A program made the position numbers and the translations under genes. A DNA stretch of 64,000 bases from an uncultured bacterium (GTDB lineage Bacteria; Vulcanimicrobiota; CADAWZ01). Shown in pieces: positions 7,151-46,646 of this stretch. Under the pieces are notes generated by a model. That model saw only the letters and a program-made list of their open reading frames with translations, did no database searches and was not told the DNA's origin. The stretch is taken from positions 52,977-116,976 of the forward strand of contig CASEKF010000042.1 of NCBI GenBank assembly GCA_949288455.1, in the 5' to 3' direction. Position 1 is the first letter of the stretch. Every line of letters starts with the position of its first letter.

Positions 7151-7184
7151 ATGAAAGTCCTCCTGTACTGTTGTGTCCTCGACA

Positions 7185-7262: not shown

Positions 7263-7284
7263 ACTTTTCAACTCCTACTTTTTA

Positions 7285-10959: not shown

Positions 10960-12699
10960 ATGAATAATCTGTCTTCTTCGGTAGCGATATCCGGTCAGTC
11001 TTATTCTCAGCGGGATAAAAACTTGAATTTAGAGCATGCGCTTCAAGACGAAAAGCCTGCGCTTAAAAAGATTGCCGATTATTTTGAGCCCAGAGAAACT
11101 ACAAGCGGGGATTTAGAGTACTCTTCTCCTAAAAAAGCAGCTTTTGCCGGAGGCGTGAAAGGTCTTTTTTCCGGCGGTATTACCGGAGCCGCCGCAGGCG
11201 TTTGCGGCGGATATGTCGGCGTTAGGGTTGGAGAAGAAACGGGGTCCATGACTAAAGCTCTTGCTGCCGGCGGCGCAGTAGGAGCCGGAACTCTTATAGC
11301 CGGAAGTTCGCTTCTTGCTTCCGCCGCAGGCGGAGCTTCAGTCGCAGCGTCGGTCGGGGGCTTGGCGTTGGCAGGAGCAGTCGGAGGAGGATTGGGAGCC
11401 GCGATTAAGCAAGTACAAAATAATAGCGAAACTGAATTAAATCCTAGTGTTAAAACTTTAGCTCCGATAGCCGTGGGAGTTGCGGCCGGAGCTGCCGCCG
11501 GAGCGATATCAGGGCCGGTAGGAGCCGTTGCCGGAGCCGTTGTGGGCGGATTGTCAGCCGCTTTAAGTAAGCCGGTAAGCGACGAAAAGTCTGCGGGGAA
11601 AGCTTCTCTTCTTTCCGCCGCGGTTTCTGCGGGAGCCGGAGCCGTGACCGGAGGAGTCCTTGCAGCGGCTTCTTCTTCAAACCCTATTAATGGGGCTAAA
11701 GCACTTTCGGCCGTCGGATTATTGGGTGGTTTAACGGGAGCTTCAGCCGTTATTTCCGGAAGCCGAGAATCTGATATTAGGGACGCTTCTGCGGGAGGAT
11801 TTACAGCCGCCGCTTTAACCGAAGCTTTTACGGGTTTGGGCGGAGGAACTGTGAGCATGGCCGCTTCTATAGGCGGCGCAGTAGGAGCTCGTTTTGAAAA
11901 TAAGGCCGGAAAGGTTATTGCGGCAGGTTTAACCGGAGGAGCTTTAGGCGCCGCAGGAGGGGCTTTCGCAGGTCCGGTAGGCGCGGCTTCGGGAGCGACT
12001 TTAGGCGCGGCTACGTCTATTGTCGGAGCCGTGGGCGGTCCTAAAGTTCAGCAAGGAATAAGGAATTTTACCGAAGATCTTCAAAAAAAGATACAGCCTT
12101 TTTCTGAAAAAGTCAGTTCTTTTATTATAGATAAATTGGGAGAAGAAAAAGGTTTGACGGCCGTTGGAGCTATTACCGGAGCTCTAGGTTCCATTCCGGT
12201 AGGATTGCTGGCCGGAGCCGTTTTGGGGCCTATAGGCGCGGCTGCGGCTTTAGCCGTATCCGCCATTGCCGGAGGATTTAAATTCTCCAATATAGCTAAA
12301 GAACTTTCCGATTTAAAAACGGTTAGAAGCGAAATGGCGGCTAAAGGTCCTTCGCTTGAAGATATTAATTCTTATATGTGTCAGGCCGCTTTTAAAAAAA
12401 TAGAGCCTCAATTGGCAAATTTATCTCCTGAAGAGAAAAAAGAGTTTTATGAAGAGCTTTATAAACAAAGTTTTGTAGAGTTAAAAACTAAAGAAAAAGA
12501 AATTAAAGAAGCTGCAAAACAGCTTGCCGACGCCGTTTACGCCGAGTTGAAACCTATGCTTGGCGAAATAGACGATAAGGAAGATAAACAGAAATTTATC
12601 AGCGGGCAGATTTCTTCTTCAAAACCTGTTTTAACTAATCTTATGGCCGAGTATACCGTATCTATGCTTCAATCTTCAGCTTCTTCGGCCTCTGAGTAA
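10960..12699 (+). CDS. Gly/Ala-rich glycine-zipper protein, paralog 1 (function unknown)
   Basis: Start moved to ATG 10960 (AAGAGG 10 nt upstream; the track start at 10930 is TTG). About 580 aa. N-terminal motif E(Y)SSP..GVKG..GG..G and VGEETGSxxKAL, a long run of GxxxG/AxxxA repeats, and a charged helical C-terminus. No signal peptide. The antisense ORFs 11079-11858 and 12081-12290 are compositional artefacts. Confidence 0.6.
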   Translation: MNNLSSSVAISGQSYSQRDKNLNLEHALQDEKPALKKIADYFEPRETTSGDLEYSSPKKAAFAGGVKGLFSGGITGAAAGVCGGYVGVRVGEETGSMTKALAAGGAVGAGTLIAGSSLLASAAGGASVAASVGGLALAGAVGGGLGAAIKQVQNNSETELNPSVKTLAPIAVGVAAGAAAGAISGPVGAVAGAVVGGLSAALSKPVSDEKSAGKASLLSAAVSAGAGAVTGGVLAAASSSNPINGAKALSAVGLLGGLTGASAVISGSRESDIRDASAGGFTAAALTEAFTGLGGGTVSMAASIGGAVGARFENKAGKVIAAGLTGGALGAAGGAFAGPVGAASGATLGAATSIVGAVGGPKVQQGIRNFTEDLQKKIQPFSEKVSSFIIDKLGEEKGLTAVGAITGALGSIPVGLLAGAVLGPIGAAAALAVSAIAGGFKFSNIAKELSDLKTVRSEMAAKGPSLEDINSYMCQAAFKKIEPQLANLSPEEKKEFYEELYKQSFVELKTKEKEIKEAAKQLADAVYAELKPMLGEIDDKEDKQKFISGQISSSKPVLTNLMAEYTVSMLQSSASSASE

Positions 12700-12712
12700 G
12701 GAGTCGTTAGTT

Positions 12713-14044
12713 ATGAATTCCGTGAACATATCCGGATCTAGTCAGCCTGAGACGCGCGTTTGTAACGACGTAAAGAGGGACGGAAATTTAAAAAATAAAA
12801 TAACTGAAAAAATAGAAGATATTTTTGAACCGAAGCCGGACACTTCCGGTAATAAGATTTATTCTTCGCCTTTAGACGCCGCTTGGAGCGGAGTAAAAAA
12901 AGGATTTACCGCCGGAGGATTGGCATGCGTTCCTTCCGGAGTCTTAGGAGGCATAGCCGGAACGAGAGTTGGAGAGGAAACCGGCTCCCTTGCTAAAGCG
13001 TTGATCGCCGGATCGACGGTAGGAGCCGGAAGCGTTTTTTTAGGCTCCGGCTTATTAGAGGCTGCAGCCGGCAATTCTGTTATGGTTTTAAACGTTGGAG
13101 CTATGGCCGGAGCCGGAGCCGTTGCCGGAGGAGTTGGCGCGGCAATTAAGCATTTATCTGCTTCAAAAGGCATAGAATCTGCCTTTATAAAGAAAGTTCT
13201 GCCGGTTTGTGCCGGCGTTGCTTCAGGAGCTGCTCTTGGAGCTATAGGAGGGCCTATTGCGACGGCTGCAGGAGCCGTTATAGGAGGCGTTTCAGCCGCT
13301 TTGAGCCGTCCAAGCGAGGGTTTTGAAGGGGATGTTAAGGGAACTGTTAAAGCTTCTCTTCTTTCTTCCGCCGTAGCCGGCGGGACAGCCGCCGTAGCCG
13401 GAGGACTTTTGGCGTCGGTTTCGGCAGATCCTTCGGTCGTTTCCGATACCGTTAGGAATCTGGCGATAGCCGGAGGCCTGGCGGGAGGAGCCGCTTCCGT
13501 TTCGGGAGCCAGGCTTTCGGAAATGAAAGACGGAGCTTCCGCCGCTTCAAAGGCCGTGTCTATAGCTTCTGCGTTGTCTTCCGGGAAAGTAGGCGGCTTA
13601 ACGTCTTTATCTTCGTCGATTGGAGGAGCTATAGGCTTGCGCGCCGATACTGTTCATGGAAAGGCGTTGCTTTCCGGTTGCGTAGGCGGAGCCGTAGGAG
13701 CTGTTTCCGGCATAGCCGCAGGCCCCGCAGGCATGGTTGCCGGAGCGATTTTAGGAGCGGTCGCTTCTTCTATAGGAGCCTCGGCAGGCCCTAAATTAAA
13801 ACAAGCCGTTAGGAATGTTAAAGAAGCCGTTTTAGATAAATGCGAACCCGTCTTAATTAAAATTGACGGTAAGCTGGAACAATTCATTGATAAATTTGAA
13901 GGACCGGCGTCTAAGGTTTTGGGCGAAAAAACTGGAGAAAAGTTGACGGAATTTGTAAAGGAAAAAATAGACGATGCCATAGATCCAAAACCTATAGATT
14001 TGGAACAGTATGATTTAGATAAACCTTATAATAAAAAAGAATAG
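12713..14044 (+). CDS. Gly/Ala-rich glycine-zipper protein, paralog 2 (function unknown)
   Basis: 443 aa. RBS TAAGGAG lies 13 nt after the paralog-1 stop. Shares the N-terminal YSSP / VGEETGSLAKAL motifs and the Gly-zipper core with paralog 1. Confidence 0.6.
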   Translation: MNSVNISGSSQPETRVCNDVKRDGNLKNKITEKIEDIFEPKPDTSGNKIYSSPLDAAWSGVKKGFTAGGLACVPSGVLGGIAGTRVGEETGSLAKALIAGSTVGAGSVFLGSGLLEAAAGNSVMVLNVGAMAGAGAVAGGVGAAIKHLSASKGIESAFIKKVLPVCAGVASGAALGAIGGPIATAAGAVIGGVSAALSRPSEGFEGDVKGTVKASLLSSAVAGGTAAVAGGLLASVSADPSVVSDTVRNLAIAGGLAGGAASVSGARLSEMKDGASAASKAVSIASALSSGKVGGLTSLSSSIGGAIGLRADTVHGKALLSGCVGGAVGAVSGIAAGPAGMVAGAILGAVASSIGASAGPKLKQAVRNVKEAVLDKCEPVLIKIDGKLEQFIDKFEGPASKVLGEKTGEKLTEFVKEKIDDAIDPKPIDLEQYDLDKPYNKKE

Positions 14045-24216: not shown

Positions 24217-25173
24217 ATGAAAATTAAATGCGTAGCGGTTGTAGGGCCGACTGCTTGCGGAAAGTCAGATTTGGCTGTTAAGTTGGCCGAGAAGTTTGGC
24301 GGCGAAGTCATTTCTGCCGATTCCAGGCAGATCTTTAAAGGTATGGATTTAGGAACCGGCAAAGTTTCCGGATTTTTAGACTCAAGTTTCTCAATAGATT
24401 GTCCTCCTGTCATTTTCCCGTTTGTTTCTTCCGGCATAAGGCATTGGATGATTGACATACTAGATCCGATTGAAAAATTTTCGGCCGCCGATTTTCAGCG
24501 CTGCGCTTTGGCGCTTATAAAAAACATTTCAGAAAGGAATCGCAGCGTTTTCGTAGCCGGAGGAACCGGTTTTTTCGTTCGCTCGCTTACGGACGGTTTA
24601 GATTTTGCTAAAGTTCAAATTTCTGAGGAAGTTAGGCGGTATGTCTTATCTTTATCGTTAAGCGAAGCGTCTGAACGTTTGATATCCCTTCAGAGCGACG
24701 CGGAATCGTTCGTTGATTTAAAGAATCCCAGGAGAGTAGCCAGAGCTCTTGAACTTATGCTTTCAGGGCTTGGAAATTTATCCGCGATGAAAAATAAAAG
24801 GGAATTAGGTTTGGAATTTCTCGTTTTGGGTCTTTCTCTCCCGAGAGAGACTTTAAAGCTTAGAATTTTCAACAGATTGGAAGAACGCTTACAAAAAGGA
24901 ATGGTCGCCGAGATCGAGGGACTTATCGAGAGAGGCGTTCCTATTTCGCGTCTCGAATCTTTCGGACTTGAATATAGAATGATAGCGAGATACGTTTCGG
25001 GAAGTATTTCATACGACGAAATGAAAACTTCGTTGTATTCCGAAATATGCAAGTTCGCCAAGCGGCAGATGACTTGGTTTAAGAAATATTCTAACGTAGT
25101 TTGGCTCGACGGCGAACGGGAGGCTTTTGAGCTTGTAGAACATTTTTTAACTTCTATGGGTGAGACGATGTGA
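24217..25173 (+). CDS. miaA: tRNA dimethylallyltransferase
   Basis: VGPTACGKS P-loop and ISADSRQIFKGMDLGT(G)KV, typical of MiaA. 318 aa. Confidence 0.85.
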   Translation: MKIKCVAVVGPTACGKSDLAVKLAEKFGGEVISADSRQIFKGMDLGTGKVSGFLDSSFSIDCPPVIFPFVSSGIRHWMIDILDPIEKFSAADFQRCALALIKNISERNRSVFVAGGTGFFVRSLTDGLDFAKVQISEEVRRYVLSLSLSEASERLISLQSDAESFVDLKNPRRVARALELMLSGLGNLSAMKNKRELGLEFLVLGLSLPRETLKLRIFNRLEERLQKGMVAEIEGLIERGVPISRLESFGLEYRMIARYVSGSISYDEMKTSLYSEICKFAKRQMTWFKKYSNVVWLDGEREAFELVEHFLTSMGETM

Positions 25174-26255
25174 TAGAAAATTTTTGGAAACGTTTTGATA
25201 TATGGATTATCGTTCCTGTTTTTCTTTTATTTTCGCTCGGTTTGCTTGTTCTTCAAAGCTCGGCGGCCGATTCGTTTTTTCCGTTATCCGATATTGTTTT
25301 AAAACATTGCGTTTTCTTTGCGATTGGGTGCGCCGTTCTTGTTCTTTTCGCAGCGTGCGATTACGACGCTTTAGGCCGTTTGGCGACCCCTATAGCGCTC
25401 GTGAATATATTTCTTTTGATTTTTGTTTTTTTCGCGGGACATTCCGCTAAGGGCGCGCAGAGATGGATCGCTATGGGCGGTTTTACTTTTCAACCTTCCG
25501 AGCCCGCTAAACTTATTGTCGTTCTTGCTTTGGCTAAAATTTTGGCGTCTGTCGATAAAATTGACAGACCTACCATTGTTTCAGTAGTTTTTACGGTATT
25601 TATTCCTTGGTTTTTGATTTTTATTCAGCCTGATTTGGGGACTTCTCTGGTCATAGTTTTCGCCGCTTTCGTTATGCTGTATTTTGTGGGAATAAAGCCT
25701 TGGATACTTTTATCTGTCTTGCTTACGGCATCTTCTTTGTCTCCGTTTCTTCTTCGCGATTATCAAAAAGACAGGCTGCTTGTTTTTATAAATCCGGAAC
25801 TTGACGTATCCGGAGCCGGATGGAATATCGCTCAGTCTAAAATCGCCGTCGGAAGCGGAGGACTTTTTGGAAAGGGACTTTTTCAAGGAACTCAGACTCA
25901 ACTTGATTTTGTGCCTGAACATAGCACCGATTTTATTTTTTCGGTTATAGGAGAGGAATTAGGATTTATAGGCTGCGTCTTAGTTTTACTTTTATATGTT
26001 TTTTTGCTTTATAGATGCGCTTTTATTATAAAATCATCTAAAGATAAATTTGGTTTTTTAACCGGAGTAGGCGTTTTTTGTTTACTAGGGTTTCATGTTT
26101 TTGTAAATATAGGTATGGTTTTGGGAGTTATGCCTGTGGTAGGAGTGCCTTTAACTTTTATTTCTTCCGGAGGAAGCGCTTTAATTTCTAATATGGCGGC
26201 TATTGGAATTTTAGAAAGTATTTATAGTAGACGCGAAAGACTTTTCATTAAGTGA
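25170..26255 (+). CDS. SEDS-family peptidoglycan glycosyltransferase (RodA/FtsW)
   Basis: 10-TM protein with the RodA/FtsW-like motif GFTFQPSEPAKL. Overlaps the miaA stop by 4 bp. Confidence 0.8.
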   Translation: MIENFWKRFDIWIIVPVFLLFSLGLLVLQSSAADSFFPLSDIVLKHCVFFAIGCAVLVLFAACDYDALGRLATPIALVNIFLLIFVFFAGHSAKGAQRWIAMGGFTFQPSEPAKLIVVLALAKILASVDKIDRPTIVSVVFTVFIPWFLIFIQPDLGTSLVIVFAAFVMLYFVGIKPWILLSVLLTASSLSPFLLRDYQKDRLLVFINPELDVSGAGWNIAQSKIAVGSGGLFGKGLFQGTQTQLDFVPEHSTDFIFSVIGEELGFIGCVLVLLLYVFLLYRCAFIIKSSKDKFGFLTGVGVFCLLGFHVFVNIGMVLGVMPVVGVPLTFISSGGSALISNMAAIGILESIYSRRERLFIK

Positions 26256-26303: not shown

Positions 26304-26657
26304 GTGAATTCTTTCGTTTTTTTATTTAAGAATAGGCCCGGAGCAGAATCAAGGTTTAATACTCTTTGCGGTCTTGTTTTATCCGCTTTGGCTAAAGGTT
26401 TTAAAGTGTCTTTGATATTAGAGCTTGACGCCGTATTGTCTTCAGTTACGTTTCAACATTCTTATGAAGCTTTAATTTTATCGAAAGACAGGGTTTCAGA
26501 AATGATTGAAATGGGAGCCGAAGTTTTTATTTGCTCTGTTTGCGCCGCTTCGAAAGGCGTTTCTAAAAATTCGGATCATGTATCCGGAGTTAAGTTCGTG
26601 TCTCCTGAAATGATGGCCGGTATTATTGGAGAGCGGGACACTTGTATTTCTTTGTAA
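26304..26657 (+). CDS. DsrE/TusD-like sulfur-relay family protein
   Basis: 117 aa. DsrE/DsrF-like fold signature (FLFKNRPG.., Cys-containing). GTG start. Confidence 0.45.
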   Translation: MNSFVFLFKNRPGAESRFNTLCGLVLSALAKGFKVSLILELDAVLSSVTFQHSYEALILSKDRVSEMIEMGAEVFICSVCAASKGVSKNSDHVSGVKFVSPEMMAGIIGERDTCISL

Positions 26658-26677
26658 AAAAAATCGAGGTGCGTTAA

Positions 26678-27031
26678 ATGGCAAACGGCAAAAAAATACT
26701 TATTTTTATTTCTCACACTCCGTTTTCAGGGTCCTTCTGCGAAGAAGGTCTGCGTTTTGCCTTGGGCGTTGGAAACGCTTTGGTGAAGCATGATGTTGCT
26801 ATCGTTTTAATTGGAGACGGGGTTTGGTTTTCCCTTAAATCTCTTAATCAAAGAGATTTTGAAAAGTATGTTAAAGCGTTTTCTGTTATGAATATGGGTT
26901 TAATTATCGAGAAAGAGTCTTTGGAAAAAACGGGCTTATCTCAAGATATAATAAAATCTGAGTTTAAAATAATGGCTAGACAGGAGATTTTCGAGCTTAT
27001 AAAAGGTTCTGATTTTACAATTTCTTTTTGA
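26678..27031 (+). CDS. DsrE/DsrF (TusC)-like family protein
   Basis: 117 aa. KILIFISHTPFSGSF..GLRFALGVGNALVKHDVAIVLIGDGVW matches the DsrE/DsrF family consensus. Confidence 0.55.
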   Translation: MANGKKILIFISHTPFSGSFCEEGLRFALGVGNALVKHDVAIVLIGDGVWFSLKSLNQRDFEKYVKAFSVMNMGLIIEKESLEKTGLSQDIIKSEFKIMARQEIFELIKGSDFTISF

Positions 27032-27081
27032 GGCGTTAAATTTGATTAGGCGTTTATCGTGCGCCTGGAAAGGTTGAGTTT

Positions 27082-27342
27082 GTGGCTATTTATATCGTAG
27101 ATAAAAACGGCTTAGATATCGCGGTTTCTTATGCGGCTATGGATTCGAACGCGAAAGTTTTTCTTATACAAGACGGATTATACGCGCCTAGCGAACTGCT
27201 GAAGGATTTGAAAGTCTTCGTTTTTTCCGAAGAGGTCGAAGAAAGAGGTCTTGGCGACGTTCTTCCCGCTTCTTTCGAAAGAATCGGGTATGACGAAGGC
27301 ATAGATATAATGGTTGACGAACGGATCGTGTCGTTTTGCTGA
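27082..27342 (+). CDS. DsrH/TusB-like protein
   Basis: 86 aa. ..KVFLIQDGLYAP.. resembles the DsrH/TusB signature (LLQDGVYA). Confidence 0.5.
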   Translation: MAIYIVDKNGLDIAVSYAAMDSNAKVFLIQDGLYAPSELLKDLKVFVFSEEVEERGLGDVLPASFERIGYDEGIDIMVDERIVSFC

Positions 27343-28307
27343 TTTTTAATATTACTGCCGACGCTTTATTGTTTTCGTCGGATTGGTCGGCGGAGATTAA
27401 GACCGTACATCGTAAGGCGGTTAATCTTATTGACAATTCCGGCAGCTTGATCACGCTTTGCGACAGATCTGTTATGCCCGGTTTCGGTCGTATAACTCTT
27501 CCGCATTCCGATTTGTTCGATATTTTTTCAGAAGGTTCTTCGGTCTATTTTTCCAGACGTTCAAATAAGTTGACATATGCCGAATTTAATCTTGATAAAT
27601 CCTGTTTCCGCTTGTGGAAACAGGATTTGTTTTCTGATTTAAAGACTATATCTATCGATTCTTTAATCTCTAACTCTGTACTGTTTGCGGAAAAATTTAT
27701 GCGTTTTTGCCGTCCCAGGGAAAAAATATTGTTTTCTTCTTTAATAAATTTTGCGTTAAACTCTGACGGAAAGGTTATCGAGAAAAATTGCGAAGGAATT
27801 CAAGATTCAGTTTATGCCAGGTTGTCGGATATATGGAGAGATTTTTTCTATTGTTCGTTTATGAAGGTTGAATATGATGTTTTGAAGAATTTCATATATG
27901 CGAGCATAGGTTTAGGATATGGATTTACGCCTTCGGGAGACGATTTGCTATCCGGTTTTTTATGCGCGCTTCACGTCTTGAAAAAACAATCTCCGGAACT
28001 TTATCCGGACTGTATTCCGAATAATTTTTTTAATCTTATTGAACTAGGAGCCGGAAACGCTCCTTTAATTAGCTCGAAGTTGCTTTTAAGAGCGGCTGCG
28101 GGAGAATATCCTTCGGAAATTTCAGAATTATTCCGCTTGTTGGTCGGCGAAGCGTTCTCTTCAGGACTTAGTCCTTACGTTTTGACTGAGGATGAAATTA
28201 TAACTTATTTTCTAAATCATGGTTATTCTTCCGGTAGGGAAATTGTTATGGGTTTTACGGCCGGTATTCTGTTCGGCTGTTCTTATTATAAAAAAATCAC
28301 ACGTTAA
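27336..28307 (+). CDS. DUF2877 (YlbF-like) protein
   Basis: 323 aa. GYGFTPSGDDLLSGFLCAL and HGYSSGRE motifs. Overlaps the DsrH-like stop. Directly precedes fdrA. Confidence 0.55.
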   Translation: MLIFNITADALLFSSDWSAEIKTVHRKAVNLIDNSGSLITLCDRSVMPGFGRITLPHSDLFDIFSEGSSVYFSRRSNKLTYAEFNLDKSCFRLWKQDLFSDLKTISIDSLISNSVLFAEKFMRFCRPREKILFSSLINFALNSDGKVIEKNCEGIQDSVYARLSDIWRDFFYCSFMKVEYDVLKNFIYASIGLGYGFTPSGDDLLSGFLCALHVLKKQSPELYPDCIPNNFFNLIELGAGNAPLISSKLLLRAAAGEYPSEISELFRLLVGEAFSSGLSPYVLTEDEIITYFLNHGYSSGREIVMGFTAGILFGCSYYKKITR

Positions 28308-28312
28308 GAGGT

Positions 28313-29887
28313 TTGTATATGCTTGTCAATTATATTATTAAAAATCGATTTTATGATTCGGTTCTTTTAATGCAGATTGCCAACGACATAAAATCAAAGT
28401 TCGGCTTTGAAAAAGTATCCGTTATGATGGGTACTCTTCCCAATAAAGATTTGATGAGGGAAACCTGCGTTTTAGCCGACGAGGGCGAAGCGGCCGGAGC
28501 GAACGACGTTATAGTGGCGTTTGGCACAGATAAAGAAGAAGATTTTAAAAAGGCTTTCGAATATTTGAACGATTTGCTTGAGAAGAAAAAAGTGAAATTG
28601 GATGCCGGAGGCGTTAACGTTTCGTATTCCACTATCGAATCGGCTTTTCAAAATCATGACGACGCAAATACCGTATTTATATCGCTTCCGGGTCCTTTTG
28701 TGCGATATGAGGCTCAAAAAGCCGTAAATCTTGGAATGAACGTAATGATTTTTAGCGATAACGTGTCTTTGGAAGATGAGATCGCATTAAAGAAGGCGGC
28801 GGAGAAAAAAGGCGTTATAGTAATGGGGCCAGATTGCGGAACCGCTATTATAAAAGGTTCCGCTTTGGGGTTTGCCAACGTTATACCTCAAGGACCCGTA
28901 GGTATAGCAGGAGCTTCCGGAACCGGAATTCAAGAATTAACGGTTCTTCTCGCCGATAGAGGCATTGGAGTTTCGCACGCTTTAGGCACAGGAGGCAGAG
29001 ACGTTTCCGAGGCCGTTGGCGGAATCGCTTTGCTGCAAGCGTTGAGAGCGTTGGGAGAAGACGAATCGACAAAAATTATAGCCGTTATTTCAAAGCCTCC
29101 ATGCGATAAAGTCGTTAATAAAATGCTTAAGGAGCTTGAAAGGATATCTAAACCCGCAGTAGTCTGTTTTATGAAAGACGGAGAACTCATGAAAGATTAC
29201 GCTAACATTCGTTTCGCCGCGACTATTGAAGACGAAGTTGGCATTTTAGAAGAACTTATATATGGCGCGCCGTATAAAAAATCGCTCTTCTCTTACGATA
29301 AAGAGGTAATAGACGAGCTTGTATGCCGTTCCGTCGCCGCGCTTAACGAAGAGCAGAAATATATAAGAGGTCTTTATTCAGGAGGAACGCTCTGCGACGA
29401 GGCTTTGATGATTTTGAATCGGGCTTTTGGGAACGTGTGGTCTAACGCTTCTCTTTATCCCGATAGAAAACTTAAAGACGCTAAAGAGTCTAAAGAACAT
29501 TCGCTTGTAGATATGGGAGACGATGAATTTACCAGAGGAATGCCTCATCCTATGATCGATTTTACCTTAAGAAAGGAGAGGCTGATTAAGGAAGTTCGTC
29601 AAAAAGACGTGGCCGTAATATTGTTAGACGTCGTTTTGGGATACGGTTCTCATATGAATCCCGCCGGCGAATTGGCGGAAGTTATTAGATCGGAAAGAGC
29701 TTTAGCTTTAAAGGAAGGGCGCGATTTTGTCGTTTGCGCTTATGTGTGCGGAAGCGAAGGAGATCCTCAAAAGCTGGCTGAGCAGAAGAAAATTTTGGAA
29801 GACGCTGGCGTAATTCTTATGCCTAGCAACGCTCAAGCGGCTCGCTTCTGCGTCTTAGTAGCCGGAAGAGGCAAAATAACTTTATAA
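28313..29887 (+). CDS. fdrA: FdrA-family acyl-CoA-synthetase-like protein
   Basis: 524 aa. The N-terminus (MxxNxIIKNRFYDSVLLMQI..KVSVMMGT..NK) closely resembles the E. coli FdrA N-terminus. CoA-ligase/succinyl-CoA-synthetase-like domains. Confidence 0.8.
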   Translation: MYMLVNYIIKNRFYDSVLLMQIANDIKSKFGFEKVSVMMGTLPNKDLMRETCVLADEGEAAGANDVIVAFGTDKEEDFKKAFEYLNDLLEKKKVKLDAGGVNVSYSTIESAFQNHDDANTVFISLPGPFVRYEAQKAVNLGMNVMIFSDNVSLEDEIALKKAAEKKGVIVMGPDCGTAIIKGSALGFANVIPQGPVGIAGASGTGIQELTVLLADRGIGVSHALGTGGRDVSEAVGGIALLQALRALGEDESTKIIAVISKPPCDKVVNKMLKELERISKPAVVCFMKDGELMKDYANIRFAATIEDEVGILEELIYGAPYKKSLFSYDKEVIDELVCRSVAALNEEQKYIRGLYSGGTLCDEALMILNRAFGNVWSNASLYPDRKLKDAKESKEHSLVDMGDDEFTRGMPHPMIDFTLRKERLIKEVRQKDVAVILLDVVLGYGSHMNPAGELAEVIRSERALALKEGRDFVVCAYVCGSEGDPQKLAEQKKILEDAGVILMPSNAQAARFCVLVAGRGKITL

Positions 29888-29918
29888 ACTGGAAAATTTT
29901 TGAAAGGATATATATTGC

Positions 29919-31325
29919 ATGTCAGTTCATATAAATAATCTGCTTAAAAACGGTCCGAGCGTTATTTCAATGGGTTTGCCTTTATTCGGCGAAGCTCTTA
30001 AAGAACAAGGCGTAAAAACTGATCATATAGATTGGAAACCTCCTTGCGAAGGAGATCCGGAACTTATATCGATTTTATCGTCTCTTCAGTCGGAAGAAGT
30101 AGAGAAAGCTAACTCGTTAGCTCTCGACAGACTTATAAATTCCACGCCCGTATTGGTCGATCTTGCTCCCGCCGCGGAAGTCCTGCCGGATATGGATAAA
30201 CATACTATATTACATGCAGGACCTCCTATTTCTTGGGAAAGAATGTGCGGTCCTATGAAAGGCGCCGTTTTGGGTGCCGTAGTATACGAAGGTCTTGCAG
30301 ATAACTTAAATGAAGCGGAAAAATTGGTCGAGTCAGGAAAAATACGTCTTGATTCTTGCCATCATCATAACGCGGTCGGACCTATGGCCGGAGTTACTTC
30401 GGCCTCTATGTATATGTTTGTCGTAGAAAACGTCTCATTTAATAATAGAGGATTTTGTAATTTAAACGAGGGGCTAGGCAAAGTTTTGAGGTTTGGAGCC
30501 AACGACGCCGAAGTTTTAAAAAGGTTAAAGTGGATGGAGTCGACGCTTGGCCCGGCTTTGAAAAAAGCCGTAAAATTGTCGGGAGGAATCGATATAAAGA
30601 ACATTACTTCCCAGGCTCTGTTAATGGGAGACGAGTGCCATAATAGAAATGTAGGAGGCACTTTACAGTTTTTAAAAGTTATAACTCCTTATCTTTTAAA
30701 AACTGATACTCCTTATTCCGATATAAGAGATATTTTTGATTTTATCGCCGGCAACGCGCATTTTTATTTGAATTTGTCGATGGCCTCTTGTAAAGCTACC
30801 GCAGATTCGATAAAAGGCATTGAAAAATCTACTATTTTGTACTGTATGGCCCGTAATGGAGTAGAAATCGGAATTAGAGTCGCCGGTTTAGGAGACGAAT
30901 GGTTCACGGCTCCTTCAGGTATGCCTGACGGCCTTTATTTTTCCGGTTTTTCAAAAGCAGATTCTAATCCTGACTTAGGAGATAGCACTATTTCCGAAGT
31001 TGCCGGCATAGGTGCGGTCGCTATGGCCGCGGCTCCCGCGATAGTAAAGTTTGTAGGGGGAAGCGCGTCTATGGCTTTAGAATCTACTATGAAAATGTAT
31101 CAAATTACATATGGAAGCCATAGAGATTTTACTATTCCTTCTTTAGACTTTATGGGAACGCCTCTTGGCTTTGATTTAAGAAAGATTATGGAAACCGGAA
31201 TCACTCCTATTATCAATACCGGCATAGCGCATAAAAAAGCCGGCATAGGTCAGATTGGAGCGGGTATTTTAGATGCCCCTAAAGGCGGATTTAAAAAGGC
31301 TTTATTGGCTTTTGGCAGAAAATAA
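29919..31325 (+). CDS. DUF1116 (YlbE-like) protein
   Basis: 468 aa. The position after fdrA matches the conserved E. coli fdrA-ylbE arrangement. Confidence 0.65.
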   Translation: MSVHINNLLKNGPSVISMGLPLFGEALKEQGVKTDHIDWKPPCEGDPELISILSSLQSEEVEKANSLALDRLINSTPVLVDLAPAAEVLPDMDKHTILHAGPPISWERMCGPMKGAVLGAVVYEGLADNLNEAEKLVESGKIRLDSCHHHNAVGPMAGVTSASMYMFVVENVSFNNRGFCNLNEGLGKVLRFGANDAEVLKRLKWMESTLGPALKKAVKLSGGIDIKNITSQALLMGDECHNRNVGGTLQFLKVITPYLLKTDTPYSDIRDIFDFIAGNAHFYLNLSMASCKATADSIKGIEKSTILYCMARNGVEIGIRVAGLGDEWFTAPSGMPDGLYFSGFSKADSNPDLGDSTISEVAGIGAVAMAAAPAIVKFVGGSASMALESTMKMYQITYGSHRDFTIPSLDFMGTPLGFDLRKIMETGITPIINTGIAHKKAGIGQIGAGILDAPKGGFKKALLAFGRK

Positions 31326-31371: not shown

Positions 31372-32112
31372 ATGGCTAAACAGTATCATATAGGACTTGA
31401 TAAAGGCGACGTCGGGCGCTATGTTATTCTTCCCGGAGATCCTGGAAGAGTTCCGGTTATAGCAAGTTTTTTGGACAAGGCGGAGAAAGTCGCTCAAAAT
31501 AGGGAATATACTACTTATACAGGCTACGTGGGAGATATTAAGGTCTCGGTAACTTCTACCGGTATCGGCTGCCCAAGCGCGGCTATAGCTCTGGAAGAAC
31601 TGGTAAAAATAGGGGCGGATACTTTTATAAGAGTCGGTACTGCCGGAGGTCTTCAGCCTTCTATTGATTTGGGAGATCTTGTTATTCCTACAGGAGCTAT
31701 AAGAGAAGAAGGAACTACCAGACAATATATTCCTCTAAGCTTTCCTGCGGTGCCTGATTTAGACGTTACCGTAGCTTTGCGCGAAGCCGCTAGAAAACTT
31801 GGATTTAAATCTCATACCGGAGTTTGTCACTGTAAAGACGCGTTCTTTATAGAAGGAGACGAGGCCCTTCCTATAGCGGAAGAAAATAAGAATTTGTGGA
31901 AAGCTTGGGAGAGAGCAAACGTTTTGGCTACTTCTATGGAGGACGCCGCTTTATTCGTTATTTCGCAGATAAGACGGGTAAGAGTAGGGGAAGTTTTGGC
32001 GATTATAGGTTTGACATATAAGGACGCTCCTATAGTAGATAAGAGATTAGGCGTAGAAGACGCTATAAAAACTGCCGTAGAAGCAATAAAAATTCTTGAC
32101 GCCGCTAAGTAA
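31372..32112 (+). CDS. udp: Uridine phosphorylase (PNP/UDP family)
   Basis: 246 aa. HIGL..GDV..YVILPGDPGRV...STGIGCPSAAIALEEL...IRVGTAGG parallels E. coli Udp throughout. Confidence 0.85.
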   Translation: MAKQYHIGLDKGDVGRYVILPGDPGRVPVIASFLDKAEKVAQNREYTTYTGYVGDIKVSVTSTGIGCPSAAIALEELVKIGADTFIRVGTAGGLQPSIDLGDLVIPTGAIREEGTTRQYIPLSFPAVPDLDVTVALREAARKLGFKSHTGVCHCKDAFFIEGDEALPIAEENKNLWKAWERANVLATSMEDAALFVISQIRRVRVGEVLAIIGLTYKDAPIVDKRLGVEDAIKTAVEAIKILDAAK

Positions 32113-32149: not shown

Positions 32150-32210
32150 ATCGATATAAATCAGGGGTTGGCTTAATCACGCCAACCCCTGATTTATATC
32201 GATTTTTATA
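32150..32210. terminator. Bidirectional rho-independent terminator between udp (+) and the FHA gene (-)
   Basis: Perfect 23-bp inverted repeat ATCGATATAAATCAGGGGTTGGC-ttaatcac-GCCAACCCCTGATTTATATCGAT, followed by TTTTTAT. Confidence 0.6.
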
Positions 32211-32546: not shown

Positions 32547-34448
32547 TTATGCTTTTTTACTCATTACGCCGATTTTAATCATTTCGGCTTCAGGTTTAAG
32601 CGTTTTTGAATTTTGAGCCGCCGATCCTCCCGGCATTGTTTCATACATTTCGCTCCAGTGAAAACCTTCTTGCAATGTGTCTATAGTTTTTGCAAGATAC
32701 TGGTTTGAATTTTGAATAATCGCGTTAATATCCGTATGTTCTCTGAATTTTCTGTATAAGGCTACCGATGAAGTTCCGGGTATGAATTTAATTTTATTGA
32801 CCGCTTCTCTTAGCTTGCTGTGTTCGTTTGAAGCTTTGATGCCTTTTTCGAATTGACGTTCCTTTCTTAATATAGTAGTTTCTGAACTACGAATATCTTT
32901 AGGAAGTATCTTTGTAGAAGAATCATACTCTTCTTGCTCTGTCTGCCTCTCTTGCTCCTCCTGCCGATTCGTCTCTGTCTGCCGCGCTTGCTCCTCCTGC
33001 CGATTCGTCTCTGTCTGTTGCGCTTGCTCCTCCTGCCGATTGAACTCTGTCTGTTGCGCTTGTTCCTCCTGCCGATTCGTCTCTGTCTGTTGCGCTTGCT
33101 CCTCCTGCCGATTCGTCTCTGTCTGGTGCGCTTGCTCCTCCTGCCGATTGAGCTCTGTCTGTTGCGCTTGCTCTTCCTGCCGATTGAGCTCTGTCTGCTG
33201 CGCTTGCTCCTCCTGCCGATTCGGCTCTGTTTGCCGCGCTTGCTCTTCCTGCCGATTCGGCTCTGTCTGCAGCTCTTGCTCTTCCTGCCGATTCGGCTCT
33301 GTCTGCAACTCTTGCTCCTCCTGCCGACTTAGCTCTGTCTGCTGCGCTTGCTCCTCCTGATGTTGGCTTTTCGCTTTAAATAGAGAGCGCTGAGGAGGCG
33401 CGTCTGACGAACTTCTAAAAGGAGATCTGGCTAAAGCCGCTTTTATAGAAGAAGATAAATCTTCCAGAACAGTCTCGTATTCTTCCTGAGTTAAAGAAGA
33501 ATATATTAATTCTTCAAAGTATATTTTTTTCTTTTTATATACAAGTCGTTCCGGCAGCGGCCCATATTGCTCGAAAAGCTTTAAGAACCCTTCGAAGATA
33601 TGCTGAGGCATGCCTCTGTTTATTAATTCTTTTTCTGAATAAGTGTATTGGTCTCCTATATTTAGAGTTCTGTTTTGTTCTTCCTCATGAGGCTCCGGAT
33701 TACTTTCGGTATGAAGATCCGTAGACGCAGGTTCGGTTGTTTCTTCTTGCGGCGGCTTAGTCGGCTCTATTTCGACCGCAGCGGCTTCGTATGATTCTTG
33801 TTCGTTAAGTTCGACGCTGTTTGCTTGATTTAATTCTGCGTTAGCAGTCGCATTCTCTAAATTTTTATCTTTTTTACTGAATAGGTTATTCAAAATATTA
33901 AAAGGATTGACATGCAGAGTTTTTTCTTCTTTATCCGGCGTAACGTTTGCGTCCCCTTGTTTGAAAAGTTCGGTTTCCTTCGTTAAAAAAATATTTATAG
34001 ATTTTGAGTTATATAGAGATTCAGATTCCATCCAGTTTTTGATGGGAAGATTAATGCTTTTAAACAGAGCGTTTAATATATGAATTTCATAAACTTCTAT
34101 AGGAGTATTAAATTGAGTAGAGGTTATCGCTTCGTTCCAGGTATTCTGCATCCTTGGAGTTACAAAATATCCGTATTCTTTCCACCATCTGGGTTCGCTT
34201 TTGAATTGAGGATAAGCTTGCTGCATTAAAACGGAAACTTTTTTCTTTGCGTTCCATTTAGGTTGGTTAATATATTTTCTGATTATAGAATTTTTATTTA
34301 AAAGGAAAGCTCCTAGAAAGTGTTCTTGTCCTATAAAATAATGTTTGTGCTTTTTTGAAAGATTTTTAGCTTCTATATAATAGTCGCTCATAGAAGCGTT
34401 AAATTCGGAAAAAAAATTATCTGCTATTAACGGTTCGCTTGCGTTCAT
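32547..34448 (-). CDS. Repeat-containing protein (633 aa) with ~11 tandem 12-aa repeats (QTE.NRQEEQAQ)
   Basis: N-terminal globular part, then a central array of 12-aa acidic/Gln repeats, then a C-terminal domain. The gene ends 12 bp before the FHA gene. Confidence 0.6.
   Translation of the reverse strand: MNASEPLIADNFFSEFNASMSDYYIEAKNLSKKHKHYFIGQEHFLGAFLLNKNSIIRKYINQPKWNAKKKVSVLMQQAYPQFKSEPRWWKEYGYFVTPRMQNTWNEAITSTQFNTPIEVYEIHILNALFKSINLPIKNWMESESLYNSKSINIFLTKETELFKQGDANVTPDKEEKTLHVNPFNILNNLFSKKDKNLENATANAELNQANSVELNEQESYEAAAVEIEPTKPPQEETTEPASTDLHTESNPEPHEEEQNRTLNIGDQYTYSEKELINRGMPQHIFEGFLKLFEQYGPLPERLVYKKKKIYFEELIYSSLTQEEYETVLEDLSSSIKAALARSPFRSSSDAPPQRSLFKAKSQHQEEQAQQTELSRQEEQELQTEPNRQEEQELQTEPNRQEEQARQTEPNRQEEQAQQTELNRQEEQAQQTELNRQEEQAHQTETNRQEEQAQQTETNRQEEQAQQTEFNRQEEQAQQTETNRQEEQARQTETNRQEEQERQTEQEEYDSSTKILPKDIRSSETTILRKERQFEKGIKASNEHSKLREAVNKIKFIPGTSSVALYRKFREHTDINAIIQNSNQYLAKTIDTLQEGFHWSEMYETMPGGSAAQNSKTLKPEAEMIKIGVMSKKA
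32925..33365. repeat. 36-nt tandem repeat array (about 11-12 copies, slightly degenerate), in-frame within the 633-aa gene
   Basis: Visible periodicity ctcttgctcctcctgccgattcgtctctgtctgYYgcg repeating head-to-tail. It also generates the spurious + ORFs 32934-33332 and 33040-33360. Confidence 0.8.
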
Positions 34449-42771: not shown

Positions 42772-44307
42772 ATGAATTTAGTTACAACTGTTAGCCCTTT
42801 GGAAGATTTAAGGGCTGAAATGCTTCTTGTAACTGTTTTTGAAGGGGAGAAGGAACTGTCAGGCCGGCTTGCATGGCTCGATAGAATTTTAGGCGGCCAA
42901 ATAGGAAGACTCCTTTCTACCGGGGAAGTTAGAGGACAATTTAAAGAGTTTGCGACTCTTCATGTTACCGGAATAGGAGCTCAAAGAGTACTTCTAGTCG
43001 GTCTGGGAAAAAGAGACGATCTTACTCTTAACAGAATCAGGAGCGTCGTAGCTATAGCCGCTAGGAATTGCCGCAGAATACATGCTAAATCTTTGGCGGT
43101 AGATAGTTTTACCACCTATGGAATTACTCCTAAGGAAAGCGCTCGGGCTATCGCGGAAGGAGTCATTCTAGGCCTTTATAAATTTACGAAATATATGAGT
43201 GAAAGCACGGCGGCTAAATATAAAAGCAAAATAGAAGAACTGATAATCGCCGATAGCGAAGGAGACAATATTCCCGAGTTAAAATTAGGTTTTGCCGAGG
43301 GATATACGGTCGCTTCGAACGCTAATTTTATAAGGGATATCGTTAACGAGCCCGCCAGCTTTATGACGCCTGAAAAATTTGCCGAGACAGCTATTGAAAA
43401 GACTAAAGATCTTAACGTTAGAGTTACCGTTCTAGACGAAAAACAAATTTTACAGGAGGGAATGGAAGCTTTTTACGCAGTCGGAAGATCCGCTTCTTGT
43501 TCTCCTCCGAGACTGGTTGAAATATCGTATGAGGGTAAACCTGGAGCTCCTTGGATAGGCCTCGTTGGAAAAGGCGTTACTTTTGATTCGGGAGGCTATA
43601 ATATTAAACCCGGAGAGTCTATGAAGCGTATGCATTGCGATATGGGAGGCGCAGGAGCCGTTTTAGGAGCCGTCAAAAGCGCCGCCGAATTAGCTCTGCC
43701 CGTTAATTGCGTCGCCGTTATGCCTATGGCGGAAAATATGATTTCCGGAAATTCTTATAAGCCGGGAGATATTATTGGATCTCTAGAAGGTAAAACGATA
43801 GAAATCGTAAGCACGGACGCCGAAGGACGCCTTCTTCTCGCGGACGCTCTTACATGGACTAGAAGAAAAGGCGTTGAGTATATGATAGACATCGCCACTT
43901 TGACGGGAGGAGTCGTAGTAGCTTTAGGCCATCATTTGTCAGGCATAATGGGCACGGATCCGGCTCTTATTAAAGCCATTGAAGAAGCCGGCGAAAAATG
44001 CGGCGAAAGAGTCTGGGAACTGCCTCTTTATAAAGGGTACGCTATGCAGCTTAAAAGCGACGTCGCGGATCTTGAGAACAGCGGAGGTAGAGGCGCTTCT
44101 ACTATTACTGCCGGAATGTTCTTGAAAGAATTTACGGGACAGACTAAATGGGCTCATATAGACATAGCTGGAACGGCTACTATCGACGCTTCTATTCATC
44201 TTTACGTTCGTAATCCTTATGTGCCTAAGGAGGGAGCGACTGCCGTGGGAGTAAGACTTCTTTATCAATTTTTAAGCGATTTTGCCAATAATGGCAATAA
44301 ATTGTGA
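42772..44307 (+). CDS. pepA: Leucyl aminopeptidase (M17)
   Basis: 511 aa. NTDAEGRL-type motif (VSTDAEGRLLLADAL) and the M17 catalytic domain. Confidence 0.85.
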   Translation: MNLVTTVSPLEDLRAEMLLVTVFEGEKELSGRLAWLDRILGGQIGRLLSTGEVRGQFKEFATLHVTGIGAQRVLLVGLGKRDDLTLNRIRSVVAIAARNCRRIHAKSLAVDSFTTYGITPKESARAIAEGVILGLYKFTKYMSESTAAKYKSKIEELIIADSEGDNIPELKLGFAEGYTVASNANFIRDIVNEPASFMTPEKFAETAIEKTKDLNVRVTVLDEKQILQEGMEAFYAVGRSASCSPPRLVEISYEGKPGAPWIGLVGKGVTFDSGGYNIKPGESMKRMHCDMGGAGAVLGAVKSAAELALPVNCVAVMPMAENMISGNSYKPGDIIGSLEGKTIEIVSTDAEGRLLLADALTWTRRKGVEYMIDIATLTGGVVVALGHHLSGIMGTDPALIKAIEEAGEKCGERVWELPLYKGYAMQLKSDVADLENSGGRGASTITAGMFLKEFTGQTKWAHIDIAGTATIDASIHLYVRNPYVPKEGATAVGVRLLYQFLSDFANNGNKL

Positions 44308-46646
44308 TTGGAGGATTTATGCTTAAGCGCTTTGCCGTAATATTGACGACAGTGTTCTTTTGCTCTTTTGCGTTCGTTTTCGCAGAAGAAGTTAAAATAT
44401 CTAGAGATAGTTATGGCGTTCCTCATATTTACGCTTCTTCTGAAGAAGGGTTGACGTTTGGCCAGGGGTACGCTCAGGCATGCGACAGACTTTTTCAGCT
44501 GGAGATGATTCGTCTTTCCTCGTCGGGGAAAATGAGCGAATCTTTGGGAGCCGATTATATAGACGCCGATAAAATGTATTTGAGATATTTTCCTTCCGGA
44601 GACGAATTGAGGCTATTCGTAAAAAGTTTTAATCCTGAGCAAAAGAATTTATTCAGAGCTTTTGCCGAAGGCATTAACGCTCGCATAGCCGAAGTCGAAG
44701 CTGAGGGTACTTTGCCTGAAGACTTCGCCGAATACGGCGTGCAACCCGTAAAGTGGACGGAAACGGACGTTTTCAGAGTATACTTTGCGCGTCATAAATA
44801 TATTTACGACTCAAAACAGGAACTTGTAAACGCTATGCTTTTGAAAAAACTTATTCAAAATCATGGCCAGATAGATGGAACTCTTATTTTTAACAGTATA
44901 GTTTTTACCGGCGATTCACTTGCCGGCACAGTAGCCGGAAACTTTTCGAAGTTTGATTTTAGAGGAGCCGAAGAAGCTTATGCCAACGTCGATAGGGAAG
45001 TAAGATTTTCTCAAAAACTGACGTCGGAATTTGGTATTCCTTATGGAATAGGGAGTTATGCCGTGGCTTTAGCCGCTTCAAAAAGTAAAAGCGGAAATTC
45101 TATGCTGCTGGCCGGACCTTCGTTCGGCTTTGGAGATCCGTCTTTTCTTTATGAATGTTCGCTTCATTCTAAGGAAATACACGCCGCCGGTATTCAGTCG
45201 GTTGGTATTCCCGGGCTTTTGATCGCTCAGAATGAATTCGGAGCTTGGACGTTAACGGGAGGAAACGATAATCAGACGGATTATTATATTGAAATGTTGA
45301 ATCCTGAAAATTTGTCTCAGTATAGATATAACGACGAATGGAAGGATATATCGAAGAAAACGTATACCATAAACGTTAAAGACTCCGATCCGGTATCTTT
45401 CGAAGTTTTAGAAACGCTTAACGGAATAATAGTATCGACGGACCTTTCAGACCCTAAAAATCCTGTGGCTTATTCTAAGAGAACTTCCGTTTCCTATTCC
45501 GATTTGGCTTCTTCTTGGATGAATTCGTTCGACGCCTTGAAAAGTTATACTACCGACGCCTTTATCGAAGCTTTTAGAAATTACCCTATTTCGGCTAATA
45601 TTTTTTATATAAATCAAAAGAATCAGCCGGCATATTTTCATTCGGGCAAATATCCAGTTAGAGCGGATGGCGTCGATTTAAGGATTCCTTCTTATGGGAC
45701 CGGACAAACCGAATGGCAGGGTTTTCTCCCGTTTAACGAACTCCCTGAGAGCAGACTTCCATCCAGAGGATTTTATGCCGATTGGAATTCAAAGCCTTCT
45801 CATGATTGGAATAACGGCGAAAAAAGTTATTTATGGGGCAGTCAGAATAGGGTGGACGCGATACGCCGGTATATTGATATAAACGATAAATTTACTTTTG
45901 GCGATTTAGACGTTATTGATAGAGTTATATCATATACGGATATATACGCTGTGAATATTAAATCTCTCTTAGTTGAGAAATTGTCTTCTTCTGAGGATGC
46001 GGACGTTATCGAAGCTTCCGGGCTTATCGGCGATTGGGATAACCGCCCGGTTATTTCTGAAGACGGCGTCTTTTTGCCTCCGGGAGGCGTTATTTTCCAT
46101 GAATGGATGAAAGAGTTCGCAAAACGCGTTTGTCCCGAGCTTGACGGGGACTTTGCTCATTACGCGATAAACGAATACGGAGCCCCGTTTATTTATAACG
46201 TGCTCAGCGACGTGATTCTTCCTTATAATTTTTTAAAAGACAGTTCGTCTTCAGAAGCTGCCGTAGCCGCATTGCTTAATGCCGTTTCTAATTTAAAAGC
46301 TGAATACGGCGACGATATGGATGCATGGAAAACTGCTTTGCCAATGCAAAATTATGAAGGTCCTTATCCGAAAAGCGAACTTAGCCAGGAAATGAAACGG
46401 TTTTACGCCGGAAATAGGGCTAGCGCCATATTGATGTGGGAAGTCAGCAGATTTTGGATTAAAGGAGTAGGAGTCGTTCCTCCGGGTTCAGGCGAATTTA
46501 TAGGCGATCCTTCTAAACCGGGACATAAAGACGATCAGCTTGATCTTTATGAAAATAGAAAATATAAAAATCTGCTCTTTTACGACGAAGATATACGCCA
46601 TCAAGAAGAAAGCGTACAAATTATCCAATTTAACGAAGAACAGTAG
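44304..46646 (+). CDS. Penicillin acylase family (S45, Ntn-hydrolase) secreted protein
   Basis: 780 aa. Signal peptide, then RDSYGVPHIYA...GQGYAQACDRLFQLEM, characteristic of penicillin/AHL acylases. Confidence 0.8.
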   Translation: MIGGFMLKRFAVILTTVFFCSFAFVFAEEVKISRDSYGVPHIYASSEEGLTFGQGYAQACDRLFQLEMIRLSSSGKMSESLGADYIDADKMYLRYFPSGDELRLFVKSFNPEQKNLFRAFAEGINARIAEVEAEGTLPEDFAEYGVQPVKWTETDVFRVYFARHKYIYDSKQELVNAMLLKKLIQNHGQIDGTLIFNSIVFTGDSLAGTVAGNFSKFDFRGAEEAYANVDREVRFSQKLTSEFGIPYGIGSYAVALAASKSKSGNSMLLAGPSFGFGDPSFLYECSLHSKEIHAAGIQSVGIPGLLIAQNEFGAWTLTGGNDNQTDYYIEMLNPENLSQYRYNDEWKDISKKTYTINVKDSDPVSFEVLETLNGIIVSTDLSDPKNPVAYSKRTSVSYSDLASSWMNSFDALKSYTTDAFIEAFRNYPISANIFYINQKNQPAYFHSGKYPVRADGVDLRIPSYGTGQTEWQGFLPFNELPESRLPSRGFYADWNSKPSHDWNNGEKSYLWGSQNRVDAIRRYIDINDKFTFGDLDVIDRVISYTDIYAVNIKSLLVEKLSSSEDADVIEASGLIGDWDNRPVISEDGVFLPPGGVIFHEWMKEFAKRVCPELDGDFAHYAINEYGAPFIYNVLSDVILPYNFLKDSSSSEAAVAALLNAVSNLKAEYGDDMDAWKTALPMQNYEGPYPKSELSQEMKRFYAGNRASAILMWEVSRFWIKGVGVVPPGSGEFIGDPSKPGHKDDQLDLYENRKYKNLLFYDEDIRHQEESVQIIQFNEEQ

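Follow-up and report, generated by a model that had tools for sequence, protein, structure and literature searches.

We analysed a 64-kb stretch of DNA (64,000 nucleotides (nt), referred to as the window) from an uncultured bacterium of the Vulcanimicrobiota (assembly GCA_949288455.1, contig CASEKF010000042.1, positions 52,977 to 116,976), in which three small genes related to dsrE, dsrF and dsrH adjoin the genes of a predicted AllFGH-type enzyme. Nine co-oriented open reading frames (ORFs) occupy the + strand between 24217 and 32200 in the order miaA-rodA-E-F-H-allH-allF-allG-udp. In the following, the trio denotes the E, F and H subunits, allHFG stands for allH-allF-allG, and L with a number labels the locus of a relative. 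The first gene, miaA (24217..25173), encodes a tRNA dimethylallyltransferase (Pfam IPPT, 1.4e-48) and overlaps at its 3' end by 4 nt with a rodA/ftsW-family (SEDS) gene (25170..26255; Pfam FTSW_RODA_SPOVE, 1.2e-94), which is followed by a 48-nt gap to the trio. The trio consists of a DsrE/YchN-like E subunit of 117 amino acids (aa; 26304..26657), a DsrF/TusC-like F subunit of 117 aa (26678..27031) and a DsrH/TusB-like H subunit of 86 aa (27082..27342). Next come an allH-like gene (DUF2877, 323 aa; 27336..28307), an fdrA-type allF gene related to the alpha subunit of succinyl-coenzyme A (CoA) synthetase (524 aa; 28313..29887) and allG (DUF1116, 468 aa; 29919..31325). The last gene, udp (31372..32112), encodes a uridine phosphorylase (TIGR01718, 283.9 bits, cutoff 280.3).

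The six genes from E to allG form a + strand block at 26304-31325, and their junctions, given as short or overlapping in a preliminary description of this DNA, measure -7 to +50 nt. A purine-rich stretch lies 5' of the start of each small ORF (E, F and H), and allH starts with a TTG codon that places it in a 7-nt overlap with the end of the H gene. No intergenic terminator was detected within the block. The sole convincing one follows udp, a hairpin at 32153..32200 (+) with a 20-24 bp stem and a U tract (-41.2 kcal/mol, z = -11.1). Because the junctions are short or overlapping and the only terminator closes the string after udp, the nine genes from miaA to udp are a probable single transcription unit. 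Minus-strand ORFs inside the block were treated as spurious, being short and antisense to strongly conserved genes. A further hairpin lies inside the allH coding region (27594-27631, +), with a perfect 16-17 bp stem and then a U-rich tract (-24 kcal/mol, z = -7.3). Attenuation of transcription between the trio and allFG-udp would be conceivable here; a conserved attenuator was rejected, as the hairpin is not kept at that position in L103-L109. An Rfam scan of the window revealed no riboswitch and no other RNA family.

Profile searches agreed with the earlier assignment of the three small proteins to DsrE-, DsrF/TusC- and DsrH/TusB-like families. The E and F subunits matched Pfam DsrE with 31.5 and 39.8 bits (gathering threshold 22.7), and 9 of 9 members of the E family did so. 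The H subunit stayed just under the DsrH gathering threshold (21.3 bits against 24.4); all ten members of its family matched DsrH and no other family. Scores against the equivalog models were lower: the F subunit reached 44.8 bits with TusC TIGR03010 (1e-11, cutoff 94.15), the H subunit 25.2 bits with the NCBIfam TusB model (cutoff 49.2), and no NCBIfam TusD match was obtained for the E subunit. When family profiles were compared with the PDB, the E profile found YchN (1JX7) as its only sequence match, with its CxxC motif aligned to the CKTC of YchN, the F profile found DsrF (2HY5_B, 4e-4), and the H profile found the DsrH-family protein TM0979 (6.7e-5) and TusB (2D1P_C, 0.007). The AlphaFold2 model of the E subunit (mean predicted local distance difference test score (pLDDT) 77) gave eleven top Foldseek matches, with YchN first, all of them YchN, DsrE-family structures or chains of DsrEFH and TusBCD. 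For the H subunit, single-sequence modelling yielded a structure of too low confidence for use (pLDDT 43), and hhalign comparisons of the three trio profiles with one another, all of them shallow, gave nothing significant. In a search of 1.84 billion proteins, the F-subunit profile retrieved only 153 representative clusters at E<=1e-3, of which 28 reached E<=1e-10. Judged by these sequence relationships, the trio is a small, divergent and previously undescribed DsrEFH/TusBCD-like subfamily with a cysteine in every subunit.

An alignment of the trio from ten lineages defined its invariant residues. The E subunit has C77-x-x-C80 (C[SG][VI]C) together with ESRF and QxS.E motifs, the F subunit an F-C21-E-E motif whose cysteine is restricted to the nearest few relatives found with the F profile, and the H subunit ends invariably in ...SFC, with the cysteine as its last residue (C86). 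The stop codon after this terminal cysteine is TGA, TAA or TAG depending on the lineage, so that the cysteine is the true C-terminus and read-through by selenocysteine incorporation was rejected. No selenocysteine variant of any trio cysteine occurs among the lineages compared, and only L105 has an E motif reading exactly CGIC. A cysteine at the active-site position of the DsrE-like protein, which the preliminary description proposed to look for, is present: in the confident DsrE-fold model of the E subunit, a strand predicted for residues 73-77 ends at the invariant C77 and is followed by a helix (78-83) that includes C80. This strand-helix junction is the usual active-site location of the DsrE fold, and C77 aligns with the first cysteine of the YchN CxxC motif. 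Judged by this position, C77 may be the counterpart of Cys78 in TusD/DsrE.

The DUF2877, FdrA and DUF1116 assignments of the following three genes also stood up to searches with hidden Markov models (HMMs). The AllH-like protein matched Pfam AllH PF11392 over residues 191-310 (4.5e-13, 50.2 bits, cutoff 25), AllF matched NF004760 with 467 bits (cutoff 433) and AllG matched Pfam AllG PF06545 (1.8e-91); the Pfam families DUF1116 and DUF2877 are now named AllG and AllH. Compared with known structures, AllF matched E. coli FdrA 3DMY (6.9e-78), including the conserved ..SHALGTGGRD.. segment, and AllG matched an Enterococcus structure, 3CLQ (3.4e-128). AllG has 7996 homologues at E<=1e-20. AllG residues 1-58 (29919-30092) match the C-terminal tail of the E. 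coli-type FdrA model (positions 505-555), and the alignment of 3CLQ to AllG starts at residue 59. Since the FdrA tail sits at the N-terminus of AllG, the AllF/AllG boundary lies about 50 codons earlier than in E. coli. All three subunits that the allFGH family requires (FdrA-type AllF, DUF1116 AllG and DUF2877 AllH) are thus encoded, and by contiguous genes. The purified AllF-AllG-AllH complex is the E. coli oxamic transcarbamylase, whose genes allFGHK lie beside allECD (Kim & Kim 2024, PMC11326118), and the preliminary description had been correct in naming fdrA-ylbE-ylbF as the proposed oxamate carbamoyltransferase. By sequence, AllHFG is a member of this known enzyme family in a non-canonical context. 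Searches for AA_kinase/carbamate kinase genes and for allantoin genes found neither, whether in the 64-kb window (ORFs of 150 aa or more) or in the flanks of L103-L109.

The conservation of the locus was examined in relatives that came largely from bovine/ruminant and other host-associated (gut) metagenomes, each locus providing a view of 1-21 kb with flanks of up to 21 kb. Metagenomes were scanned by H-subunit alignment, which gained at least one locus (L107); degenerate patterns were unspecific. The trio-allHFG arrangement was found in six divergent uncultured lineages. In the recurrent loci, AllG is 73-85% and MiaA about 48% identical to the window's proteins. L103 (AllG 85%) has E-F-H-allHFG; L105 (AllG 73%) has the same string, with miaA-minC-rodA upstream and an AIM24 gene between allG and udp; and L109 (AllG 74%) has E-F-H-allHFG-udp. 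In L007, for which AllG was not available, E-F-H is followed by a partial allH N-terminus, an ORF that overlaps the H gene and is homologous to the N-terminus of the window's AllH. L104 (AllG 75%) has F-H-allHFG-udp behind a penicillin-amidase gene and lacks the E subunit at the locus. Between H and allH, the spacing in L103, L104, L105 and L109 varies between an overlap of 26 nt and a gap of 24 nt. As the arrangement recurs in L007, L103, L105, L109 and, without E, in L104, it is not a chance juxtaposition. The miaA-rodA-trio synteny is kept in L008-L017, L105 and L109, and rodA adjoins the trio in all lineages but L104. There, F-H-allHFG-udp (L104:6676-12254) directly follows PepM17 and penicillin-amidase genes whose window counterparts lie at 42772-46646; the missing E gene and the juxtaposition of these genes with F place a rearrangement breakpoint inside the trio.

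Other members of the clade carry the trio by itself. L008-L014, L018-L022 and L107 show rodA-E-F-H-udp with about 80 nt between H and udp and no remnant of allHFG, and in L015-L017 E-F-H is followed by an FMN reductase gene, again without allHFG. In a neighbour-joining tree of concatenated F and H sequences, both groups lacking allHFG were nested inside allHFG-bearing lineages. This nesting implies at least two losses of allHFG, and the simplest history would be an ancestral E-F-H-allHFG-udp string from which allHFG was later lost at least twice. Every invariant trio cysteine is retained in the lineages without allHFG, and the function of the trio therefore does not need allHFG at the locus.

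Conversely, allHFG occurs without the trio. At L108, an outgroup locus from a metagenome-assembled genome (MAG) labelled Candidatus Eremiobacteraeota bacterium, the order is STAS-allH-allF-allG-udp-CN_hydrolase (7413-13127), with AllG 69% and Udp 78% identical to the window's proteins, and no trio was seen within 21 kb. AllF, AllG and AllH of the trio-linked loci hold no cysteine that is specific to them when compared with this copy; C43 and C309 of AllG are clade-specific, yet also occur in L108. Outside the clade, a DsrE-, DsrF- or DsrH-like ORF was found at 0 of 80 AllG loci from other phyla (AllG 48-62% identical; phmmer, tblastn and four HMMs, E<=1), these being the best of about 600 pattern matches, a broad sample rather than a census, that does not include the window's clade. 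The six-gene neighbourhood of the preliminary description recurs within the clade, and none of the 80 AllG loci sampled from other phyla has trio-like genes.

A recurrent neighbour of AllHFG is udp. Within the clade Udp is 88-91% identical and its gene is placed after allG or the H gene, with AIM24 intervening in L105. A similar linkage appears in L031, an Elusimicrobia MAG with allH-allF-allG-amidohydrolase-cyclase(PF04199)-udp at 6730-13256. In other phyla (L023-L102), the neighbours of AllF and AllG are putative cyclases (PF04199), pairs of thiolase-like and ChsH2 OB-fold/zinc-ribbon proteins and molybdenum (Mo)-hydroxylase subunits rather than allantoin genes (for example L064:6856-12228, L078:7959-10196 and L024:12593-13537). 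Small genes (about 115 aa) that adjoin AllFG in Firmicutes and Chloroflexi were considered as DsrE-like and rejected, as they encode ChsH2-type OB-fold/zinc-ribbon proteins paired with thiolase-like genes. Because of the udp, cyclase, thiolase and Mo-hydroxylase neighbours, the AllFGH family is probably not restricted to oxalurate and would have a wider substrate range. Gene linkage suggests that uridine phosphorylase is a better-supported functional partner of AllHFG here than either the trio or allantoin genes. With udp as partner in place of allantoin genes, the AllHFG substrate is more likely to be pyrimidine-derived than to be allantoin-derived oxalurate, and the AllHFG-udp linkage in loci without a DsrE-like gene hints at an undescribed role of this enzyme family in the catabolism of pyrimidine nucleosides.

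Our preferred interpretation, to which we give a probability of about 0.55, is that the locus combines two separable modules in one vertically inherited operon of a narrow uncultured clade, and that their adjacency is ancestral and entails no obligatory mechanistic link. The modules appear separable because trio-only lineages exist, L108 has allHFG only, and the sampled AllG loci of other phyla have no DsrE/F/H-like ORF. Adjacency within the clade is weak evidence of shared function, because the functionally unrelated miaA, (minC) and rodA sit in the same conserved string. The preliminary description had suggested, as one possibility, that the AllFGH complex is joined to a step handling persulfide or perselenide; this finds no support in the separable modules, the outcome of the survey of other phyla and the lack of trio-specific cysteines.

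As judged from family membership, gene order and invariant cysteines, the trio would be a thiol-based persulfide relay forming a heteromer of the DsrEFH/TusBCD type. C77xxC80 of the E subunit may be the site of persulfide loading or a redox site, and the C-terminal cysteine of the H subunit may serve as a mobile acceptor arm that takes the role of TusE/DsrC. The task of such a relay would be housekeeping sulfur transfer, most plausibly tRNA thiolation because of the fixed place of the trio beside miaA. AllHFG, in turn, would act downstream of Udp and phosphorolyse an N-carbamoyl (ureide) compound to carbamoyl phosphate.

Several observations weigh against two independent modules. Six lineages share the E-F-H-allHFG order in spite of a divergence to about 48% identity in MiaA and 73% in AllG, the H-allH junction is always tight, and the F-H-allHFG-udp block of L104 is intact although its upstream context has changed; these features would also fit a functional operon. 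Where allHFG is missing from the locus, it might lie in another part of the genome, given that each locus was viewed over 1-21 kb, and the result for other phyla rests on the best 80 of the pattern matches and not on an exhaustive census. A role in tRNA thiolation is weakened by the TusB and TusC scores below the equivalog cutoffs, the missing TusD match and the presence in E of a CxxC of the YchN/YedF type in place of the single cysteine of TusD/DsrE. Genes for tusE/dsrC, tusA or mnmA occur in none of the flanks examined (the window and up to 21 kb in the relatives). As to the proposed pathway, neither a carbamate kinase nor a ring-opening enzyme is encoded beside allHFG in the clade.

The first alternative, which we regard as unlikely, is a functional coupling in which the clade-specific, cysteine-rich trio is a facultative accessory of the AllHFG enzyme. 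The trio might deliver sulfur or selenium to AllHFG or accept it from there, or a protein thiol, such as the C-terminal cysteine arm of the H subunit, might carry a carbamoyl or thiocarbamoyl intermediate in the breakdown of ureides derived from uridine or thiouridine. The ancestral E-F-H-allH-allF-allG order with its tight or overlapping H-allH junctions in six divergent lineages, the survival of F-H-allHFG-udp as a block through the rearrangement in L104 and the apparent co-transcription of trio and allHFG genes speak for such a coupling, and the CoA-binding fold of AllF would make a thiol co-substrate chemically conceivable. However, the two modules are found apart in both directions, the trio cysteines stay invariant even after loss of allHFG, no cysteine of AllF, AllG or AllH co-varies with the trio, none of the 80 AllG loci sampled in other phyla has a DsrE-like gene, and L104 has no CxxC-bearing E subunit at its locus. 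Moreover, the three purified E. coli proteins AllF, AllG and AllH form a complex that is active without a trio-like partner (PMC11326118). On the sequence comparisons made here, a functional coupling of trio and AllHFG is unsupported.

A second possibility, distinctly improbable in our view, is that the trio is a redox or metal/Fe-S module with CxxC chemistry of the YchN/YedF/SaoD type, with a function unrelated to AllHFG and other than persulfide relay. In the heteromer, the four invariant cysteines, of which E has two and F and H one each, would then jointly provide a dithiol-disulfide or metal-binding site. YchN is both the sole PDB match of the E profile, CxxC on CxxC, and the top fold match, L105 carries exactly the CGIC form, and DsrE-like proteins with CxxC, CGXC or UxxC motifs have been described as redox-type or selenium-linked (PMC5322559; bioRxiv 10.1101/2022.07.06.499078; PMC13188914). 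In contrast, the E-F-H gene organisation and the matches of F and H to DsrF, TusB and TM0979 are hallmarks of a heterohexameric relay and not of the homo-oligomeric YchN.

There is also a slim chance that the trio is a dedicated protein-thiol partner of AllHFG in the catabolism of (thio)pyrimidine nucleosides. In such a pathway the base freed by Udp would be ring-opened to an N-(thio)carbamoyl compound, the substrate for cleavage by AllHFG, with sulfur or the carbamoyl group carried by the invariant cysteines and the C-terminal cysteine of the H subunit working as a swinging arm (compare the C-terminal cysteines of HypE and DsrC).

The window also contains markers of the selenium-cofactor trait of selenium-dependent molybdenum hydroxylases (SDMH), 17-34 kb downstream of the trio. 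These are a selA gene (48020-49417, -), which the preliminary description had noted correctly, a TRZ/ATZ/SsnA-like amidohydrolase gene followed by an overlapping 445-aa ORF without family match and a NUDIX gene (51758-54915, +), a YgeY-like M20 hydrolase gene (59448-60722, -; 257 bits, below the cutoff of 321) and yqeB (61364-62233, +; TIGR03309, 265 bits, cutoff 220); a molybdenum hydroxylase gene was not found in the window. That the trio traffics selenium for the SDMH trait or for another selenium use, independently of AllHFG, has in our estimate only a very small probability: these markers, the YqeC and MocA-like genes about 6 kb upstream of the trio in L012 and L013 and the tie of a DsrE-like CxxC domain to selenium in YedF (PMC5322559) would fit, but the window markers are distant, on both strands and separated from the trio by unrelated genes, no selenium marker adjoins the trio in any locus, no selD was seen nearby, no trio cysteine has a selenocysteine variant, and no NCBIfam YedF match was obtained.

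Elsewhere in the window, Pfam and NCBIfam searches (E<=0.01) gave nothing more than marginal matches for large ORFs of 589, 443, 633 and 435 aa at 10930-14044 (+), 32547-34448 (-) and 55852-57159 (-). A tRNA-Ile(tat) called by ARAGORN at 6800-6880 (+), antisense in kdpA, is probably a false positive, since Rfam has no tRNA there at gathering score.

The clade-restricted operon of a DsrEFH-like trio, allHFG and udp is new and undescribed in the literature. Full-text literature searches found no paper joining the DsrE family with FdrA, DUF1116 or DUF2877, which bears out the earlier statement that no link between allFGH and DsrEFH/TusBCD was known. On the likelier reading of two separable modules, the trio would represent a compact DsrEFH/TusBCD-like subfamily with a terminal-cysteine arm, a candidate relay needing no TusE, and there is evidence from three distinct groups that uridine phosphorylase goes together with AllFGH-family enzymes. 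The locus would then also serve as a caution that adjacency conserved in a narrow clade can reflect inheritance and not mechanism. If, on the other hand, the trio does work with AllHFG, the carbamoyl-transfer enzyme, whose genes became known only in 2024, would have a variant that depends on thiols or sulfur, and DsrEFH-like proteins would have a new function beyond sulfur oxidation and tRNA thiolation.

Compared with E. coli AllFGH, the locus has all three subunit families encoded by contiguous genes in one operon. The gene order is H-F-G here and F-G-H in E. coli, AllH has 323 aa against 271 aa, and a stretch of about 50 aa that ends the FdrA protein in E. coli belongs to the N-terminus of AllG here. 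E. coli AllFGH is accompanied by allK and allantoin genes, whereas the 64-kb window has no allK and no allB/C/D/E and the neighbour is udp. AllHFG of the window is likened to oxamic transcarbamylase by its sequence, and its substrate here is a prediction.

The trio resembles TusBCD (E. coli, 2D1P) and DsrEFH (Allochromatium vinosum, 2HY5) in having three small DsrE-fold/DsrH-family genes in the same D-C-B/E-F-H order, in the cysteine that the model of the first subunit, E, places where a strand passes into a helix, in the profile matches to DsrF and TusB and in the fold matches to DsrEFH and TusBCD chains. It differs from them in the lack of a TusD match, in TusB and TusC scores that fall short of the equivalog cutoffs, in the CxxC of E in place of their single cysteine, in the invariant FCEE cysteine of F, and in having no tusE/dsrC or dsr genes nearby (in the window or within at most 21 kb in the relatives). 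The H subunit has its invariant cysteine at the C-terminus instead of at what would correspond to the Cys20 position of DsrH.

The nearest match of the E subunit in sequence and fold is YchN (1JX7), with the CxxC aligned to CKTC. A CGXC/CxxC motif has been described for YedF (PMC5322559) and SaoD (bioRxiv 10.1101/2022.07.06.499078), and a DsrE-like selenoprotein has a UxxC motif (PMC13188914). From YedF the E subunit differs by the absence of the SirA/TusA N-terminal domain, of a TIGR03527 match at E<=0.1 and of a selenocysteine form. YchN, YedF, SaoD and the UxxC protein are encoded by single genes or as domain fusions, whereas the E subunit is encoded together with F- and H-like partners.

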